Shown: positions 25,549-64,000 of the stretch, in pieces | Position numbering within the stretch: the first letter of the stretch is position 1 | Layout: each line of letters starts with the position of its first letter | Origin: Rhizobium sp. Q54 | GTDB lineage: Bacteria; Pseudomonadota; Alphaproteobacteria; UBA2966; CAIVPW01 | Length of the DNA: 64,000 nt | Direction: 5' to 3' | Assembly: GCA_945904955.1 (NCBI GenBank) | Contig: CAMDPO010000011.1 | Coordinates: forward strand, 259 to 64,258 | The notes under the pieces: model-generated | Seen by the model: only the letters and a program-made list of their open reading frames with translations | What the model was told of the DNA's origin: nothing | Databases searched by the model: none | Program-made: the position numbers and the translations under genes

Positions 25549-27360
25549 TTGGGCATGGTCAGCCGCGGCAGGACGTGGCGGCGCGGAGTCATCTGCGCGG
25601 CGGCATTGGCTGTCTGTGCCTCGTCGCATCCGGCAGCGGCGCGTGACGTCACCGACACGCGCCTCGTCAACGCCGATGCCGAGCCCGACAACTGGCTGCA
25701 TCACCACGCGAACTACGCCGGCCATCGCTTCGGCAACCTGACCCAGATCAACGCCGGCAACGTCCGCACCCTCAAGCTCGCAGCGATGGTCCTGCTCGCC
25801 GGCCAGACCCGCGCCGAGGGCGGCCGCCAGGGTATGACGCGGCTCGAGGGCACGCCGCTCGCCGAAGACGGGTTTGTCTACGTCACCGACGGTTGGGGCT
25901 CGCTCTACAAGCTCGACTTGCGCAGCGGCAGCCGCGCCGACTTCGTCTGGAAGATGGACCCGCGCCTCGACAAGGTGTGGGCCGGCGACGTCGCCTGCTG
26001 CGGTGTCAACAACCGCGGCGCCGCGCTGTGGAAGGACCAGGTCATCTCCATCGCCTTGGATGGCCGCCTGTTCGCGGTCCACAAAGACTCCGGTCAGATC
26101 ACCTGGGAGCGCAAGGTCGCCGATCCCGGCGTCGCCGAGACGCTCACCACCGCGCCCCTCGTCATCCGCGACATGGCAATCGTCGGCCCCGCCGGCGCCG
26201 AGTACGGCATCCGCGGCTGGTTGGAGGCCACCGACCTCGTCAACGGCACGCCCATCTGGCGCACCTACACGATCCCGGCCAAAGGTGAGAGGGGTAACGC
26301 GACCTGGGCGGACACCTACAACGCCTGGGAAACCGGCGGCGGCTCCATCTGGGTGACCGGCACCTACGATCCGCAGATCAACCTGATGTACTGGGGCACC
26401 GGCAATCCGGCGCCGCAGATCGACGCCGAGTATCGCCCGGGCGACAACCTCTACACCGACAGCCTGCTGGCGATGGATCCCAACACCGGCGCCATCAAGT
26501 GGTTCTTCCAGTACACGCCCAACGATCCGTTCGATTACGACGAGGTCGCCGAGCATCCGCTCATCGACCTCGACATTGGCGGCACCATGCGCCGGCTGGT
26601 CACCCACGCCGGCCGCAACGGATTCTTCTACGGCTTCGATCGCGTTTCCGGCGAGTTCCTCTACGGCCGCCAGTACCCGAACCTCGTCACCTGGACCAAC
26701 GGCCTCGATCCCAAGACCGGGCGCCCGCTCGCCTACAACCCGAACACCGCGGTGCAGCAATACAACCTCGGCACGGTGCCGCGCCGCGGCGTCGTCGGCG
26801 TGTTCTGCCCGGCGCTCGCCGGCGGCAAGAACTGGGAGCCGTCGTCCTACAGCCGCACCCTGCGCACGGTGTTCACGCCGTCCACCGAAGGCTGCTCGGC
26901 CTACGTCGCCGAGAACGACGGCCACTTCGAGGGCAAGCTCGGCGGCACCTTTCGGAAGCGCGCCATGTGGGACGGCCGCGCCCCGGCGCCGCCCGACACG
27001 CCGCTGCCGCTGGCGCAGACCGCGTTCTCCCTCAACGCCATCGACCCGCGCACCGGCGAGGTGCGCTTCAAGCTGATGCAGGACGTCAAGACCTGGGGCG
27101 TGCTCGCCACTGCCGGCGGCATCGTGTTCGGCGGCAACCAACTCGGCGACGTCTTCGCCCTGGACGCACGCACCCTCAACACCCTGTGGACCTTCAACGT
27201 CGGCACCCCCATCCAGGCGCCACCCATGACCTTCGCGGTCGGCGGCCGCCAGTACGTCGCCATCATGGCCGGCGGCGCCGCCGGCGCCGCCCAGCGCGTC
27301 CTGCGCAACTCCACGGCGTTCTTCACGCCATCCAACTACGTCTTCTTTTTCGCGCTATAA
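25549..27360 (+). CDS. PQQ-dependent dehydrogenase, methanol/ethanol family (8-bladed propeller), paralog 1
   Basis: Signal peptide, vicinal disulfide CC (DVACCGVNNRG), tryptophan-docking repeats, active-site FDYDE. 603 aa. Confidence 0.8.
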   Translation: MGMVSRGRTWRRGVICAAALAVCASSHPAAARDVTDTRLVNADAEPDNWLHHHANYAGHRFGNLTQINAGNVRTLKLAAMVLLAGQTRAEGGRQGMTRLEGTPLAEDGFVYVTDGWGSLYKLDLRSGSRADFVWKMDPRLDKVWAGDVACCGVNNRGAALWKDQVISIALDGRLFAVHKDSGQITWERKVADPGVAETLTTAPLVIRDMAIVGPAGAEYGIRGWLEATDLVNGTPIWRTYTIPAKGERGNATWADTYNAWETGGGSIWVTGTYDPQINLMYWGTGNPAPQIDAEYRPGDNLYTDSLLAMDPNTGAIKWFFQYTPNDPFDYDEVAEHPLIDLDIGGTMRRLVTHAGRNGFFYGFDRVSGEFLYGRQYPNLVTWTNGLDPKTGRPLAYNPNTAVQQYNLGTVPRRGVVGVFCPALAGGKNWEPSSYSRTLRTVFTPSTEGCSAYVAENDGHFEGKLGGTFRKRAMWDGRAPAPPDTPLPLAQTAFSLNAIDPRTGEVRFKLMQDVKTWGVLATAGGIVFGGNQLGDVFALDARTLNTLWTFNVGTPIQAPPMTFAVGGRQYVAIMAGGAAGAAQRVLRNSTAFFTPSNYVFFFAL

Positions 27361-27369
27361 CAGATCGTT

Positions 27370-27398
27370 GTCATTGCGAGCGAAGCGAAGCAATCCAG
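27370..27398. repeat. REP element family B (GTCATTGCGAGCGAAGCGAAGCAATCCAG)
   Basis: Perfect hairpin with GCGAAGCGAAGC loop region. Matches 53806-53834 and the arms of 20635-20745. Confidence 0.6.
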
Positions 27399-27400
27399 TG

Positions 27401-28000
27401 ATGGCTAGATCATTCGCCTTCGGTGCGGCTGTGGCCGCGGCGCTGTGGATCGCTCCCGCGTCCGCCAACCACGAACCCGACTACGCCGAGCGCGTGCGCT
27501 ACTGCGCGACCCTGTCGTACGCCCTGGTCGAATCGATCATCACTTTCCGGGAAAGCATCGACGTCGCCATCGACGCGACCGGCGTGCTGCCCAACGCCAC
27601 CGACCAACGCATCATGGACGTCGTCGCGCGCGCCACCAGCGCCGGGGCCGGACGCATGTTCGACAATCTCAGTGAATGCTTGATCGCGCTGGGCGACGAC
27701 CTCGAGCGCGAGGAGAACGCCAACCTCGCTGCCCAGGGCATCGCCGTCGAGATCGACTTCGCCATCGAGGAAGTCGGCGCGGTGTTCACCACCATCGAGG
27801 AAGGCGAGGGCACCCTGCGCCGCAAGTGGGGCGCCGCCGGTGCCGCCCAGGCCGCGAGCGCCCTGCAGACGTTCCGCGACTTCGCCCTCGACCTCGAAGG
27901 CTACCTGGAAGAGGCCCGCGATTTCGTCGCCGTCCTCGTCGAGCGCACCGCGCCGGAAGGCGTCGTGCCGCCGCCCGACACCCCGCTGCGACCGCTCTAG
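27401..28000 (+). CDS. hypothetical periplasmic protein (signal peptide, predicted all-helical)
   Basis: Start reassigned to ATG after the REP element (MARSFAFGAAVAAALWIAPASA signal). No recognisable motifs. Sits between the two PQQ dehydrogenases. Confidence 0.45.
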   Translation: MARSFAFGAAVAAALWIAPASANHEPDYAERVRYCATLSYALVESIITFRESIDVAIDATGVLPNATDQRIMDVVARATSAGAGRMFDNLSECLIALGDDLEREENANLAAQGIAVEIDFAIEEVGAVFTTIEEGEGTLRRKWGAAGAAQAASALQTFRDFALDLEGYLEEARDFVAVLVERTAPEGVVPPPDTPLRPL

Positions 28001-28078: not shown

Positions 28079-28882
28079 CTACCGCGCTGTCCCCGCTACC
28101 TCGCCGTCCGGCATCACCGTGTCGACAATCGTCGCACCGGCAAACACCGTGTCGATCGTCGTCGCGCCCTGTAGCCGCGCGTTGGTGAGATTGGTGTCCA
28201 TGAGATTCGCGCCCGTCAGGTCCGCCCCATAGAGGTCCGCGTCCGTCAGGTTGGCGCCCTCCAGATTGGTGCCGCGCATCGTCGCGAACGGCAGGTCGGC
28301 GACTTCCAGGTTGGCGCCGCGCATGTCGAGGCGCCCGAGGTTGACCTGATCGAACCGCGATCCGCCCAAGTACGCGTTGCGGAACACCGTGCCGCCCACC
28401 GCCGCGTTGCGAAAGTCGGCGTCGATGAACTTGGCGCCTTCGAACGTCGCGCGCTGCAGCCGCGCCCGAATCAGAATCGTCTCGACGCCGTACGCCCCGC
28501 CGAAGTTCGCGCCGGTGCCATCCGCCAGGTACAGGTTGGCGCGCGTCAGCGTCGCCTCGCTCAGGTCGGCGCCGCGCACGTTGGCGCGCGACAGGTTGGC
28601 GCCCTCGAGGTCCGCGCCCTTCAGGTTGGCGCCTTCCAGGTTGGCGAGATAGAGGTTCGCCGCACCCAGGATGGCGCGCTCCAGGTTGGCGCCCTTCAGC
28701 TGGCGCCGCTGCAGGTCGGCGCCCTCCAGCGCACATCCGGCGCAATCATTGCTGTGCCCTGACAGGAACGCCGCCTCGCGCTCGCCAACCGGAGGAGTGG
28801 GTGGGGCCGGGGCCTGCGCAACGGCAGAGCCTGCGGCGACCGCCGCCGCGAGAGCACATCCAAGGAATCGAGCCGGCGCCAT
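28079..28882 (-). CDS. pentapeptide repeat protein with N-terminal signal peptide (periplasmic)
   Basis: About 40 tandem A(D/N)LxG/ANLxx pentapeptides. Start reassigned to MAPARFLGCALAAAVAAGSAVA (signal-like), 64 bp divergent from PQQ dehydrogenase 2. Confidence 0.7.
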   Translation of the reverse strand: MAPARFLGCALAAAVAAGSAVAQAPAPPTPPVGEREAAFLSGHSNDCAGCALEGADLQRRQLKGANLERAILGAANLYLANLEGANLKGADLEGANLSRANVRGADLSEATLTRANLYLADGTGANFGGAYGVETILIRARLQRATFEGAKFIDADFRNAAVGGTVFRNAYLGGSRFDQVNLGRLDMRGANLEVADLPFATMRGTNLEGANLTDADLYGADLTGANLMDTNLTNARLQGATTIDTVFAGATIVDTVMPDGEVAGTAR

Positions 28883-28946: not shown

Positions 28947-30773
28947 ATGACCCGGGCATTTCTCACCTCGACGGTTGCCGCTTTGGCGCTCGCCTTCGCG
29001 TTGCCCGCCACTGCCCGCGACATGACCCAGGCGCGCCTTGAGAATGCCCACACCGAGCCCGACAACTGGCTGGTGGTGAACGGAACCTATGCCGCGCAGC
29101 GCTACGCCAACCTTGGCCAGATCACCACGGCCAACATCCGGGATCTCACGCCGCGCATGATGGTGCTGCTCGGCGGCCAGATCCCGGCCCAGGGCGGCCG
29201 CTATGCCGTGACGCGCCTTGAAGGCACGCCGCTTGCCGAGGACGGATTCCTGTTCGTCTCCGATGGCTGGGGCGCCATCTACAAGATCGACGTGCGCTCC
29301 GGCACGCGCGCCGACTTCGTCTGGAAGTATGAGCCGCAGGTCGACAAGGTGTGGGCCGGCGACGTCGCCTGTTGTGGCATCAACAACCGCGGCGTCGGTC
29401 TGTGGAAGGACAGCGTCATCTCCGTCTCCCTCGACGGCCGCCTGCACCGCATCCACAAGGAGTCGGGGCAGGTCATCTGGGAGCGCAAGATCTACGACCC
29501 CGGCATCGCCGAGACGCTCACCGTGGCGCCGCTCGTCATCCGCGACCTCGCCATCGTCGGCTCGGCCGGCGGCGAGTACGGCATCCGTGGCTCCCTCGAC
29601 GCCACCGATCTCAATACCGGCAAGCAGGTTTGGCGCACCTTTACGGCCGGCGGCAATGACCGCGACCCCAACGAGAAGGCCAAGGCCACCTGGCTCGACA
29701 CCTACAACGCGTGGGAATCCGGCGGCGGCTCGATCTGGCAGACCGGCACCTTCGATCCGAGGCTCAACCTCACGTACTGGGGCACCGGCAATGCCGGGCC
29801 CGACTACGATCAGGAGTACCGTCCCGGCGACAACCTCTACGTCGCCTCGCTGCTGGCGCTGAATCCCGACGACGGCTTCATCAAGTGGTTCTTCCAATAC
29901 ACGCCGGGTGATCCGTTCGACTTCGACGAGGTCGCCGAGCACCCGCTCATCGACATCGAGGGCCGCACCCTCGTCGTGCACGCCGCGCGCAATGGCCACT
30001 TCTACGGCTTCGATCGTGCCACCGGCGCGTTCCAGTACGGCAAGCAGTATCCGACCGTGGTGACCTGGTCGGGCGGCATCGATCCGAAGACCGGACGTCC
30101 GATGACCTACGTGCCGGGTGCGCCGCTGCAAAAGTACGCGCCGGGCACGGTCGCCGACCGCGGCGGCGCCGTCGGCATGTTCTGTCCGGCCATCACCGGC
30201 GGCAAGAATTGGGAGCCGACGTCCTACAACCCGCAGCTCCGCACGATCTTCGTCACCTCGAATGAGGGCTGTACGGGCATGCGCACGGTGACGCGCCTCA
30301 ACCACTTCGAGGGCAAGCTCGACGGCACCAGCAAGAAGCGCTCGGCGTGGACCGGCGGCGCCACGCTCAACAACCAGCAGATGCTGGAGCGCGGCGTTAC
30401 CGACACGCGTCCCGTCACGATGGCCGGCAACTCGCTCAACGCCATCGACGTCACCAACGGTGAGGTGAAGACCAAGATCATCGTCAAGGCGAAGCTTTGG
30501 GGCACGGTCTCCACCGCCGGCGGCCTGACCTTCGGCTGCGACCAGTTCGGCGACCTGATGGCCTACGACAGCACCAACCTCGCGCCCTTGTGGTCCTTCA
30601 ACGTGGGGAGTCCGTGCGGCGCGCCGCCGATGTCGTACGCGTTCGGCGGCAAGCAGTACGTTGCCGTGCTGGTCGGCTACTCGCCGCCCAACACCCAAAC
30701 CGCCACCCAGGGCGGCCGCCCCGGCGCCAACCTGATGACGCCGTCCAACTTCCTCGTCGTGTTCGGGCTCTAG
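28947..30773 (+). CDS. PQQ-dependent dehydrogenase, methanol/ethanol family, paralog 2
   Basis: About 65% identical to paralog 1. Signal peptide, ACCGINNRG, active-site FDFDE. 608 aa. Confidence 0.8.
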   Translation: MTRAFLTSTVAALALAFALPATARDMTQARLENAHTEPDNWLVVNGTYAAQRYANLGQITTANIRDLTPRMMVLLGGQIPAQGGRYAVTRLEGTPLAEDGFLFVSDGWGAIYKIDVRSGTRADFVWKYEPQVDKVWAGDVACCGINNRGVGLWKDSVISVSLDGRLHRIHKESGQVIWERKIYDPGIAETLTVAPLVIRDLAIVGSAGGEYGIRGSLDATDLNTGKQVWRTFTAGGNDRDPNEKAKATWLDTYNAWESGGGSIWQTGTFDPRLNLTYWGTGNAGPDYDQEYRPGDNLYVASLLALNPDDGFIKWFFQYTPGDPFDFDEVAEHPLIDIEGRTLVVHAARNGHFYGFDRATGAFQYGKQYPTVVTWSGGIDPKTGRPMTYVPGAPLQKYAPGTVADRGGAVGMFCPAITGGKNWEPTSYNPQLRTIFVTSNEGCTGMRTVTRLNHFEGKLDGTSKKRSAWTGGATLNNQQMLERGVTDTRPVTMAGNSLNAIDVTNGEVKTKIIVKAKLWGTVSTAGGLTFGCDQFGDLMAYDSTNLAPLWSFNVGSPCGAPPMSYAFGGKQYVAVLVGYSPPNTQTATQGGRPGANLMTPSNFLVVFGL

Positions 30774-30869: not shown

Positions 30870-31652
30870 ATGTGCAGGGTTTTCTCGTACGCCTCCGTAC
30901 TCTTCGTTGCGCTGATCGCGGCGTCCGCCTTCGCGCAGGATGCCGCCACGCCGCCGCTCGTGCGTGCGCCGGATGCCGCCCGTCCCGTTGGCGATCTGCG
31001 CGAGCTTGCGGTAGGGAAGCACGCGCGCGAACTTCCGCTCGAAGGCTACTACGCCTTCGCCTGCGGCTCGAACGGCGGCACGCCCTTGGAGCAGCTCGAC
31101 GACTGGACTGGATTCGCCACCTGCGCGCGCGATCGCGCCACCGACCTCTACGAAGTCTACGTCGAGTACGATGACGAGGGCGAATACGCCGCGCGCATGC
31201 TGCTCGAGTTGTTCGGCGAGCAGGACGGCCGCCTCGGCCTGCGCAAGTATTACGGCACCAAGGTCGCCGGCCACCCGGTCGTGCTCTCGGTGCTGTTCGA
31301 CGAACGCGGCACCGCCCAGGCGATCCGCGCCGTCACCGACCAGCGCGCCGACCTCGACTACCGCCGCAACGCCTACCTGCTGCGCGTGCCCCTGATGAAT
31401 GCCTTCGGCGCCGAAGGGTGGGGCTGCCAGAATCCGCCGCTAGCGAACGGCGAAACGCCCATCGGTGAGTTCTTCGTGAAGATGCGCTGCGAGAAGATCG
31501 CTCCCAGCGGCCGCCGCATGGTGGTCGAGGCGCACCTCTACCGGAAGCCAGGCCAGACCGGCTACGACCGCACCGGCACCACGCTCGAGGGCGACTTCTT
31601 CAGCCAGGGCCGCTGGGAGATTTGGAACCCGGAATACCGGCCCGCGCCCTAG
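30870..31652 (+). CDS. hypothetical secreted protein (260 aa, 4 Cys)
   Basis: Signal peptide MCRVFSYASVLFVALIAASAFA. No recognisable domain. Codon usage fits the host. Confidence 0.45.
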   Translation: MCRVFSYASVLFVALIAASAFAQDAATPPLVRAPDAARPVGDLRELAVGKHARELPLEGYYAFACGSNGGTPLEQLDDWTGFATCARDRATDLYEVYVEYDDEGEYAARMLLELFGEQDGRLGLRKYYGTKVAGHPVVLSVLFDERGTAQAIRAVTDQRADLDYRRNAYLLRVPLMNAFGAEGWGCQNPPLANGETPIGEFFVKMRCEKIAPSGRRMVVEAHLYRKPGQTGYDRTGTTLEGDFFSQGRWEIWNPEYRPAP

Positions 31653-31656
31653 ACCC

Positions 31657-31672
31657 GCGCGGCGAGAGCGTC
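31657..31672. repeat. 16-bp direct repeat GCGCGGCGAGAGCGTC (left copy) flanking a low-GC cassette
   Basis: Exact second copy at 32579-32594. Confidence 0.6.
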
Positions 31673-31818
31673 AGCGGGGGATTCACGAGGCGCGTGGTCC
31701 GCGAGAATTGCGCCACGGACAACTCCGACTTCATCGCCCATCGAGTTTAACAAACTGCGGGCTACGAGTAATCTGCGTCCTACTGTGAACTCCAGTTTCG
31801 GACCGTCGAGGAATTCAG

Positions 31819-32097
31819 ATGGACGTGACGAATGCCGTAGATGCCGCGAAGACTTGGTTCAGGGCGACGATGAAAGACGAGAAAATTGAAAATCTCGGCC
31901 TCGAAGAGGTTGAGTTCAACCCTGTGGATCGCGTCTGGCAGATAACTCTGGGCTTTAGCCGACCGTGGAACAGCGTCCGCGACGCAGTCACTACGATCAC
32001 CGGGGAGGCACTCCCCAAGCGGACCTATCGGGTGATCACGCTGCAGGACCATGACGCAAAGGTTCTCGCGATGAAGCGTCGCGAGGCAGCAGAGTAA
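31819..32097 (+). CDS. hypothetical 92-aa protein (putative cognate partner/antitoxin of downstream PIN protein)
   Basis: Lower-GC codon usage. TAA stop directly abuts the GTG start of the PIN gene. Confidence 0.4.
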   Translation: MDVTNAVDAAKTWFRATMKDEKIENLGLEEVEFNPVDRVWQITLGFSRPWNSVRDAVTTITGEALPKRTYRVITLQDHDAKVLAMKRREAAE

Positions 32098-32574
32098 GTG
32101 TCGAAGGTCGTCGCCCTCGACGCCAATCTCGTCGTACTGCTCGTGGTTGGCCTCGCCAACCCGGCGTGGATATCCACCCACAAGCGCCTTCGAGCGTACG
32201 GCACACGAGACTACGATCTCTTGGTGCGACTACTGCAGAACGCCCGAGAAGTAGTGGTAACCCCCAGCGTCCTGACGGAAGCGTCCAACCTGGTCTCCCA
32301 AATCGAAGGCGACCGCAGGACGAAGGTCATGAAAGAGTTCCGCGCCTTCATTGGGAGGACGAAAGAGCTATTCCAGGAAAGCGCGTCAGTTTCGTTAAGA
32401 AAAGAGTTCGTCCGCTTGGGATTGTGCGACTGCGCCCTTCTTGAGTTGAGCAAGGACGACACGGTGGTCCTTTCTGCAGATCTCGATCTGTATTTGGCGG
32501 CCAGCCGCGCCGGGTACACTGCGGTCAACTTTACTCATGCGAGAGTTGAAGCTGGAATTCTGGACCGACCTTAG
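32098..32574 (+). CDS. PIN domain-containing protein (VapC-like putative ribonuclease)
   Basis: Conserved acidic positions consistent with a PIN fold (ALDANLVV D8; TPSVLTEASN; CDCALLE; SADLDL). 158 aa. Lower GC than surroundings. Confidence 0.5.
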   Translation: MSKVVALDANLVVLLVVGLANPAWISTHKRLRAYGTRDYDLLVRLLQNAREVVVTPSVLTEASNLVSQIEGDRRTKVMKEFRAFIGRTKELFQESASVSLRKEFVRLGLCDCALLELSKDDTVVLSADLDLYLAASRAGYTAVNFTHARVEAGILDRP

Positions 32575-33122
32575 CCAAGCGCGGCGAGAGCGTCGTCCAG
32601 AACGGCGACCAGGCGCGGATCGTCCGGAGTGACATCGGGCGCGAAGCGCGCCACCGCGGCGCCGTCGCGGCCGACCACGAACTTTTCGAAGTTCCACAGG
32701 ACGTCCGATGCCGAGGCGGGACCGAGGCCGTGTCCGCTCAGCTGCTCGCGCAGCTTGCCGCCGCCCTCGTGCTGCGGCCGCGCGGCGATCATCGCGTCGT
32801 ACAGCGGGTGGCGGTCGGGCCCGACGACCGTGATCTTCTTGAACATCGGAAACTCGACGCCGTAGTTGATGCTGCAGAAGGCAGCGATTTCCGACTCGGT
32901 GCCCGGCTCCTGGCGGCCGAAATCATTCGCCGGAAACCCGAGGATCTCGAGTCCGCGTCCGCGCTTCTCGACATAGAGCCGCTGCAGCGCCTCGTACTGC
33001 GGCGTCAGTCCGCACTTCGAGGCGACGTTGACGACGAGCAGGACTTTGCCGCGGTACTCGCCAAGGGTCGCCGCGCGCCCGTCGATGCGGGCGACGGGGA
33101 TCGAATAAAGGCTGCTGGTCAT
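32571..33122 (-). CDS. glutathione peroxidase
   Basis: Catalytic Cys motif (LLVVNVASKCGLTPQY), FPANDFGRQEPG, WNFEKF. 183 aa. Confidence 0.85.
   Translation of the reverse strand: MTSSLYSIPVARIDGRAATLGEYRGKVLLVVNVASKCGLTPQYEALQRLYVEKRGRGLEILGFPANDFGRQEPGTESEIAAFCSINYGVEFPMFKKITVVGPDRHPLYDAMIAARPQHEGGGKLREQLSGHGLGPASASDVLWNFEKFVVGRDGAAVARFAPDVTPDDPRLVAVLDDALAALG
32579..32594. repeat. 16-bp direct repeat GCGCGGCGAGAGCGTC (right copy, inside gpx 3' end)
   Basis: Exact match to 31657-31672. Confidence 0.6.
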
Positions 33123-60345: not shown

Positions 60346-60420
60346 GGGCGCGTAGCTCAGTGGTAGAGCGGCAAACTTTTAATTTGTAGGTCCCGGGTTC
60401 GAACCCCGGCGCGCTCACCA
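60346..60420 (+). tRNA. tRNA-Lys (anticodon UUU)
   Basis: Cloverleaf: 7-bp acceptor stem GGGCGCG/CGCGCTC, D-arm GCTCAGTGGTAGAGC, anticodon loop CUUUUAA, T-arm CCGGGTTCGAACCCCGG, 3' ACCA. Confidence 0.85.
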
Positions 60421-63708: not shown

Positions 63709-63850
63709 CGCTTGAACGCGACAAGTTCCGCACCCGCGGGTGAGTCACCGCGAAGTGATTCTGCCGCACTCTTTGGGGCCAACGCCCTCATACCAATCTC
63801 CCAACGGCACGACCGCATCCGGGCCCCTCTGACGGCGCTGCGCTGCCGCC

Positions 63851-64000
63851 ATGTCGGACCCCTCCGCATCAGCCAGCGCGCCGCTGAAAGGGACTGAGAT
63901 GGAAACGGGACTCTGGTTCTGGCTTGCGTTCCTGGCATTCACGGGGGCGCTGCTTGCCTTCGATCTCGGCGTGCTGCACCGGCGGGATCATGTCATCCGC
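63851..64000 (+). CDS. TerC family membrane protein, N-terminal fragment (runs off window)
   Basis: WFWLAFLAFTGALLAFDLGVLHRRDHVI is a typical TerC/Alx start. An alternative ATG at 63899 is possible. Confidence 0.45.
   Translation, partial: MSDPSASASAPLKGTEMETGLWFWLAFLAFTGALLAFDLGVLHRRDHVIR

Follow-up and report, generated by a model that had tools for sequence, protein, structure and literature searches.

Lanthanide-dependent alcohol dehydrogenases that use pyrroloquinoline quinone (PQQ) carry an aspartate two positions after the catalytic one (the +2 Asp), and the resulting D-Y-D motif is called “the signature” in a review (PMC11845868). For instance, replacement of this residue in XoxF1 (D320A) led to the loss of both La3+ binding and activity, and the equivalent change in ExaF (D319S) led to the loss of efficient function, while XoxF1 that was not supplied with a lanthanide bound Ca2+ but was nearly inactive (bioRxiv 10.1101/2020.02.25.964783). 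In a survey of 6,328 marine PQQ dehydrogenases, 61% had the more general form of the motif, D-x-D; 14 of the 17 PQQ dehydrogenase families carried it in all or most of their sequences, and it has been used as a lanthanide marker (Voutsinos et al. 2025, PMC11996626). The subject of this report is a pair of PQQ dehydrogenase genes, par1 and par2, located in a 64,000-nucleotide stretch of DNA from Rhizobium sp. Q54 (contig CAMDPO010000011.1), which is referred to as the window and in which a first-pass annotation, made from the letters of the DNA, had noticed the motif in both genes. Metagenomes were reportedly surveyed by Huang et al. in 2019 for clades of PQQ dehydrogenases predicted to depend on lanthanides.

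We find that the two genes encode PQQ dehydrogenases of a clade separate from the described enzymes, and that both place an Asp in the alignment column of the lanthanide ligand. The enzymes themselves are probably rare-earth-dependent, a well-founded prediction from this marker Asp.

The dehydrogenases and their predicted metal site

The two genes and the residues discussed below are listed here by their positions in the window.

25549–27360, plus strand: par1, periplasmic PQQ-dependent alcohol dehydrogenase, 603 amino acids when read from the TTG at 25549
25996–26001, plus strand: par1 Cys150-Cys151 (TGC TGC), vicinal pair, followed by Gly where all solved references have Asp
26200–26202, plus strand: par1 Glu218, predicted metal ligand, equivalent to Glu172 of XoxF SolV and Glu177 of MxaF, preceded by Ala217
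26404–26406, plus strand: par1 Asn286, predicted metal ligand, equivalent to Asn256 of XoxF SolV and Asn261 of MxaF
26533–26541, plus strand: par1 Asp329-Tyr330-Asp331 (GAT TAC GAC) in the context NDPFDYDEV; Asp329 is the catalytic and metal-binding position, Asp331 the predicted lanthanide ligand
26614–26616, plus strand: par1 Arg356, PQQ-contacting, equivalent to Arg326 of XoxF SolV and Arg331 of MxaF; Lys in quinohaemoproteins
28947–30773, plus strand: par2, PQQ-dependent alcohol dehydrogenase, 608 amino acids, with a Sec-type signal peptide
29370–29375, plus strand: par2 Cys142-Cys143 (TGTTGT), vicinal pair
29574–29576, plus strand: par2 Glu210, predicted metal ligand, with Gly before it, the state of the lanthanide references
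29790–29792, plus strand: par2 Asn282, predicted metal ligand
29919–29927, plus strand: par2 Asp325-Phe326-Asp327 (GAC TTC GAC) in the context GDPFDFDEV; D-F-D as in XoxF1 AM1 and PedH

Both proteins are type I eight-bladed PQQ beta-propeller dehydrogenases with an N-terminal signal peptide. The true start of par1 is likely the ATG at 25555, which matches the database protein P0001 (601 amino acids). Pfam PF01011 is matched by par1 at E = 1e-49 and by par2 at E = 1e-45, and NCBIfam TIGR03075 (PQQ-dependent dehydrogenase, methanol/ethanol family) at E = 3e-140 and 1e-129, respectively. The scores of 468.2 and 433.4 bits fall just under the curated TIGR03075 cut-off of 480.05 bits; since other members of the same clade pass it (for example, P0076 at 577.6 bits), par1 and par2 are divergent members of the family rather than non-members. 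Among PDB sequences searched with HMMER, the top match of par1 is the quinohaemoprotein alcohol dehydrogenase (ADH) IIB (1KV9, E = 1e-81), followed by the lanthanide enzyme PedH (6ZCV/6ZCW, E about 1e-77) and by XoxF and MxaF (E = 1e-70 to 1e-57). An AlphaFold2 model of par1 built from 70 homologs has a predicted local distance difference test score (pLDDT) of 90.7 and a predicted template modelling score (pTM) of 0.90. Foldseek ranks PedH 6ZCV first for this model and places all solved PQQ alcohol and methanol dehydrogenase structures at a template modelling (TM) score of about 0.8, with values of about 0.81 for PedH, XoxF and ADH IIB.

The D-Y-D and D-F-D triplets are in frame and lie exactly where the first-pass annotation had placed them, and the two Cys-Cys (ACCG) pairs that it had mentioned are present. 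The latter share the context DVACCG[VI]NNRG and align with C103-C104 of MxaF. For the comparison of active sites, eight PDB enzymes (three lanthanide, five calcium) served as references; their sequences were rebuilt from HMMER alignments and aligned with MAFFT, and the rebuilt sequences reproduce the published ligands E172/N256/D299/D301 in 4MAE and D320 in 6OC5. In this alignment, E218, N286, D329 and D331 of par1 and E210, N282, D325 and D327 of par2 share columns with the four reference metal ligands. The column of par1 D331 and par2 D327 holds Asp in XoxF SolV (D301), XoxF1 AM1 (D320) and PedH, whereas the calcium references have Ala (two MxaF; A305 in 1LRW) or Thr (ADH IIB, ADH IIG and the quinohaemoprotein ethanol dehydrogenase qhEDH). 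The reference motifs that the earlier reading had relied on are likewise accurate: WDYAG in MxaF (D303/A305, 1LRW), WDYDG in XoxF SolV, and WDFDG in XoxF1 AM1 and PedH. Pairwise HMMER alignments to PedH (6ZCW/6ZCV) and to ADH IIB (1KV9) independently repeat the +2 Asp pairing. By alignment and fold-level similarity, then, the +2 Asp is equivalent to the lanthanide-ligating Asp of XoxF (Asp301), as had been supposed.

Nor is the D-x-D a chance match, because it falls in a conserved alignment column and is kept in nearly all of the closest homologs. The sample for this count was the best 120 of 7270 matches from a word-indexed search, all at least 49% identical to par1; D-[YFHL]-D is present in 119 of them and CCG in 116, and the clade consensus around the motif reads YTPNDP[YF]D[YF]DE. 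The CCG is also common in the wider PQQ dehydrogenase family.

The cofactor pocket is intact as well. The PQQ contacts of par1 are E100, C150-C151, R156, T200, W268, R356, N428 and W516, and both paralogs conserve Glu55, Arg109, Thr159, Trp243, Arg331, Asn394 and Trp476 (MxaF numbering). Across 70 clade members, the metal and PQQ residues are invariant or nearly so. This bears on whether the proteins could be inactive, “empty” quinoprotein homologs without catalysis, like the acidobacterial “acido-empty-quinoprotein” group. The corresponding NCBIfam model, TIGR04528, is the second-best match of par1 and par2 (360 and 301 bits), the sister group in the tree described below has changed ligands and no Cys-Cys pair, and the window contains no pqq genes. 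However, the TIGR04528 cut-off is 650 bits, far more than either protein scores, the PQQ and metal residues are all present and conserved throughout the clade, and PQQ is imported rather than made by many bacteria (PMC12124388). We therefore consider an empty quinoprotein extremely improbable.

As catalytic proteins, par1 and par2 would each be a secreted eight-bladed quinoprotein that holds PQQ between a Trp and the disulfide of the Cys-Cys pair, with the metal bound by the Glu, the Asn and the two Asp aligned above. The second Asp would supply the extra carboxylate for a trivalent rare-earth ion, as it does in the lanthanide-dependent relatives, and given that this carboxylate is present, Ln3+-PQQ (a lanthanide ion together with PQQ) is the most likely cofactor. 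The class of substrate, like the identity of the metal, we infer from those relatives: by analogy with them, the enzymes would oxidise alcohols to aldehydes in the periplasm, probably not methanol specifically. Methanol had been named as a possible substrate at first, and we found no evidence pointing to it. Electrons would pass to a small soluble c-type cytochrome encoded outside the window in this genome, an acceptor suggested by the gene neighbourhoods of other clade members, in Skermanella and in five metagenomic loci.

Alternatively, the two proteins could be calcium-dependent or metal-promiscuous alcohol dehydrogenases, in which the +2 Asp was inherited from an ancestor by most of the superfamily and imposes no lanthanide requirement in this clade. 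The motif is the majority state, being found in 94 of 117 aligned wider relatives, and so may have been inherited by default instead of arising as a specific adaptation; moreover, XoxF1 binds Ca2+ when no lanthanide is supplied. Against this, Ca2+-loaded XoxF1 is almost inactive, the +2 Asp was needed in both of the lanthanide enzymes that were mutated (XoxF1 D320A and ExaF D319S), and it is found in none of the five calcium-type structures aligned. The residue preceding the ligand Glu can be cited on either side. It is Gly in all three lanthanide references and Ala in all five calcium references, so that Ala217-Glu218 of par1 resembles the calcium enzymes while par2 shows the Gly-Glu state of the lanthanide ones. 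Among the 120 clade members, 78 have Gly and 37 have Ala at this position, and of the wider relatives with D-x-D, 35 have Gly and 19 have Ala. Keltjens is said to have given Gly before the ligand Glu as a defining lanthanide rule in 2014. The Ala of par1 is a mild caution, not a refutation, and on balance we regard the calcium alternative as unlikely.

Several other observations join this Ala in weighing against rare-earth dependence. The motif is also present in a membrane glucose dehydrogenase that has been characterised biochemically (PMC11996626), which both favours the calcium alternative and means that the marker, though experimentally necessary, is not proven sufficient. The 64-kb window has no genes for PQQ biosynthesis or lanthanide uptake, and none for a c-type cytochrome, the sole CXXCH in a real gene being that of UvrA. 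Finally, as far as we found, no member of the clade has been solved, characterised or assayed, and identity to the nearest solved structure does not exceed about 35–40%. With these points taken into account, we still hold that par1 and par2 probably depend on rare earths.

Placement of the clade

Over trimmed columns, par1 and par2 are 32–34% identical to XoxF and MxaF, 35–36% to PedH and 35–40% to the quinohaemoproteins. We also computed a neighbour-joining tree, which is based on distances and carries no support values, for 117 sequences comprising representatives at 50% identity, the references and clade members. In this tree, par1, par2 and their relatives form a clade of their own outside the XoxF/MxaF group and adjacent to a group without the Cys-Cys pair; PedH lies at a distance from them, among other representatives. 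Judged from the sequences, the clade is distinct from XoxF, from ExaF/PedH and from the quinohaemoproteins. Its cultured members include Skermanella (WP_201082443.1) and Devosia. The divergent subgroup proposed in the first-pass annotation is thus borne out, both by the scores under the TIGR03075 cut-off and by the separate position in the tree. The flanks of the motif, which had been described as atypical, do differ from those of XoxF; as they equal the consensus of their own clade, they are atypical only relative to XoxF.

The two genes share 58% identity with each other, and par2 has its own orthologs in P0015 (88%) and P0014 (82%). A recent duplication was considered as the source of the pair and rejected: at this level of identity, and with closer orthologs of each gene elsewhere, par1 and par2 are old paralogs.

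A related question is whether these are true XoxF-type methanol dehydrogenases that serve lanthanide-dependent methylotrophy. The D-Y-D motif, the Cys-Cys pair and the Arg (not Lys) at the PQQ contact that is common to XoxF and MxaF would all fit such enzymes. Yet identity to XoxF and MxaF is lower than that to ADH IIB and PedH, and the distance tree excludes the clade from their group. Two Trp positions of methanol dehydrogenases (W265 and W540 in MxaF) are replaced by Ile/Tyr and Gly/Pro. The window also has no C1 genes: xoxG, xoxJ and genes for formaldehyde oxidation and C1 assimilation are missing from it, whereas the xoxF locus of S. meliloti has them. Lastly, the genes around the Skermanella homolog include those for a molybdenum aldehyde oxidoreductase and an iron ADH. 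We consider XoxF-type methanol dehydrogenases very unlikely, and the label XoxF-like, which had been applied to both paralogs at the outset, does not hold in the sense of descent, given the low identity, the position in the tree and the lack of xoxG and xoxJ nearby.

Two further observations concern the surroundings of the clade in sequence space. A sister group (representatives P0123–P0150) keeps D-Y-D-E without the Cys-Cys pair and often has Asp or Gln where the metal ligands Glu and Asn would be expected; its members may have a different kind of metal site or be proteins that do not use PQQ. On one metagenomic contig (L019:3798-9904), three tandem clade dehydrogenases of 613, 612 and 609 amino acids lie between two mono-haem cytochromes c.

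The locus and its conserved partners

The order of genes at the locus is par1, a 210-amino-acid acidic secreted protein, a pentapeptide-repeat protein on the minus strand, par2 and a 260-amino-acid secreted protein. The three neighbours of the dehydrogenases are as follows.

27368–28000, plus strand: acidic, probably helical secreted protein of 210 amino acids, starting 8 bp after par1
28079–28882, minus strand: periplasmic pentapeptide-repeat protein (MAPARF...), Pfam PF00805 at E = 3e-43, divergently oriented from par2
30870–31652, plus strand: secreted protein of 260 amino acids with four invariant Cys

The last of these was followed across all fetched loci with tblastn, and wherever the flanks of an independent locus were long enough, a member of its family adjoins a clade dehydrogenase. 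Such loci include those of the closely related metagenome-assembled genomes (MAGs), L009, L017, Skermanella (three records plus plasmid pTT6-1), Devosia, L018, L019 and L020. Examples of the family outside the window are L003:12351-13031, L012:7001-7732, L018:8695-9435 and L017:9225-9875. The same search found no member of the family at the xoxF locus of S. meliloti, which has both xoxG (cytochrome cL) and xoxJ; nor is the 260-amino-acid protein related to the XoxJ of that species (hhalign probability 0.2%). Its AlphaFold2 model has a pLDDT of 85.5; no match was found among Pfam, NCBIfam or PDB sequences, nor any Foldseek PDB match at E <= 0.001.

A second recurrent partner is a mono-haem cytochrome c, homologous copies of which adjoin clade members in Skermanella, L017, L018, L019 and L020. 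In tblastn searches, neither the window nor the relatives closest to it had this gene. In L017, a more distant relative, a cytochrome c gene directly follows the dehydrogenase in place of the 210-amino-acid gene. In Skermanella (L003:13515-16281 and L011:13166-15931), a module of dehydrogenase, cytochrome c and 260-amino-acid protein is followed by a 2Fe-2S protein and a molybdopterin oxidoreductase, with an iron-type ADH and a PepSY protein close by. The molybdopterin oxidoreductase and the iron ADH suggest a route from alcohol to aldehyde to acid, rather than methylotrophy.

It is tempting to view the clade dehydrogenase as the catalytic part of a three-component periplasmic system that also comprises the mono-haem cytochrome c and the 260-amino-acid protein. 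The latter might have a clade-specific role in maturation, metal loading or docking, analogous but unrelated to XoxJ/MxaJ, and the cytochrome gene might have been lost from the locus in this lineage. In this detailed form the proposal is quite unlikely to hold, and we offer it as speculation. As a protein of unknown fold that is strictly co-located with the dehydrogenases, however, the 260-amino-acid protein is the most promising lead of the analysis.

The 210-amino-acid protein has no family match in Pfam or NCBIfam and evolves fast, its counterparts in the nearest MAGs being 65%, 49% and 33% identical; it is duplicated in L016. A 226-amino-acid neighbour in Skermanella was tried as its homolog and proved to be unrelated, being instead a homolog of the 260-amino-acid protein. 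The pentapeptide-repeat protein recurs beside the clade in MAGs of the close lineage and in Devosia (L012:7729-8496).

Housekeeping genes flank the locus, namely tatBC, serS, surE, yajC-secDF and DUF498 upstream and gpx, trmFO/gid, uvrA and ssb downstream. The window matches a metagenomic contig of 78 kb (ENA ERZ27280329). The closest relatives are lake MAGs with 94% protein identity, and related MAGs retain the same site, with one dehydrogenase in some and two in others. A recent foreign origin of the dehydrogenase genes was also considered; it is rejected because their GC content (0.65–0.70) is the same as that of the window and related MAGs have kept synteny at this locus.

A stretch of lower GC content, 0.57–0.59 as compared with about 0.68, extends from about 31600 to 32600. 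It contains two abutting open reading frames on the plus strand (31819-32097 and 32098-32574; 92 and 158 amino acids) with no family match, and is absent at the corresponding position of the related loci L006 and L007. It resembles a small cassette of two genes that was inserted here, perhaps encoding a toxin and its antitoxin. Far from the locus, Rfam detects only a terC element at 63811-63866 on the plus strand (40.7 bits, gathering score 39.9) and one tRNA at 60346-60417, also on the plus strand.

Comparison with described quinoproteins

If the prediction is correct, an uncultured freshwater alphaproteobacterium has two alcohol dehydrogenases that depend on rare earths and represent a type never yet purified. 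This would add to an already strong case that lanthanide enzymes are widespread outside the methylotrophs. The picture of the field would otherwise be unchanged, since both the marker and the inference drawn from it are standard and this is one more sequence read in the same way. The clade is nevertheless a reasonable target for biochemistry, being large, with cultured members, without a solved structure and with a co-located partner of unknown fold.

Among the described enzymes, PedH/ExaF (“PQQ-ADH type 2b”; 6ZCW, 6ZCV) resemble par1 and par2 in being soluble periplasmic eight-bladed quinoproteins without a haem domain. They also share the Cys-Cys pair, the Glu/Asn/Asp/Asp site (with D-F-D, as in par2), the Arg at the PQQ contact and the “GTGNPAP” loop that contains the Asn. 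In contrast, PedH has CCD, DFDG and a Trp before the catalytic Asp, where par1 and par2 have CCG, D[YF]DE and Phe or Tyr; in par1 and par2 an insertion after NPAP replaces a Trp of PedH. Identity is about 35–36%, and PedH/ExaF fall in a separate clade. The neighbours differ too, those of par1 and par2 including the 260-amino-acid four-Cys protein and the pentapeptide-repeat protein.

XoxF (clades XoxF1–5; 4MAE, 6OC5, 6DAM, 7O6Z) shares the fold, the four protein metal ligands and the PQQ contacts, at an identity of 33–34%. The context of its motif differs, being HDEWDYDG as compared with NDPFDYDE in par1.

The type II quinohaemoprotein ADHs (1KV9, 1YIQ and Comamonas qhEDH, 1KB0) share the “AEYG[VI]RG” loop that contains the Glu and the “GDNLY” segment. 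For example, 1KV9 gives the highest sequence score to par1, with about 40% identity over trimmed columns. These are calcium enzymes, however, with Thr at the +2 position and Lys, not Arg, in contact with PQQ. A cytochrome c domain forms their C-terminal part, whereas par1 and par2 lack such a domain and have no CXXCH, and the alignment of par1 with 1KV9 stops at residue 524 of the 668 in the latter.

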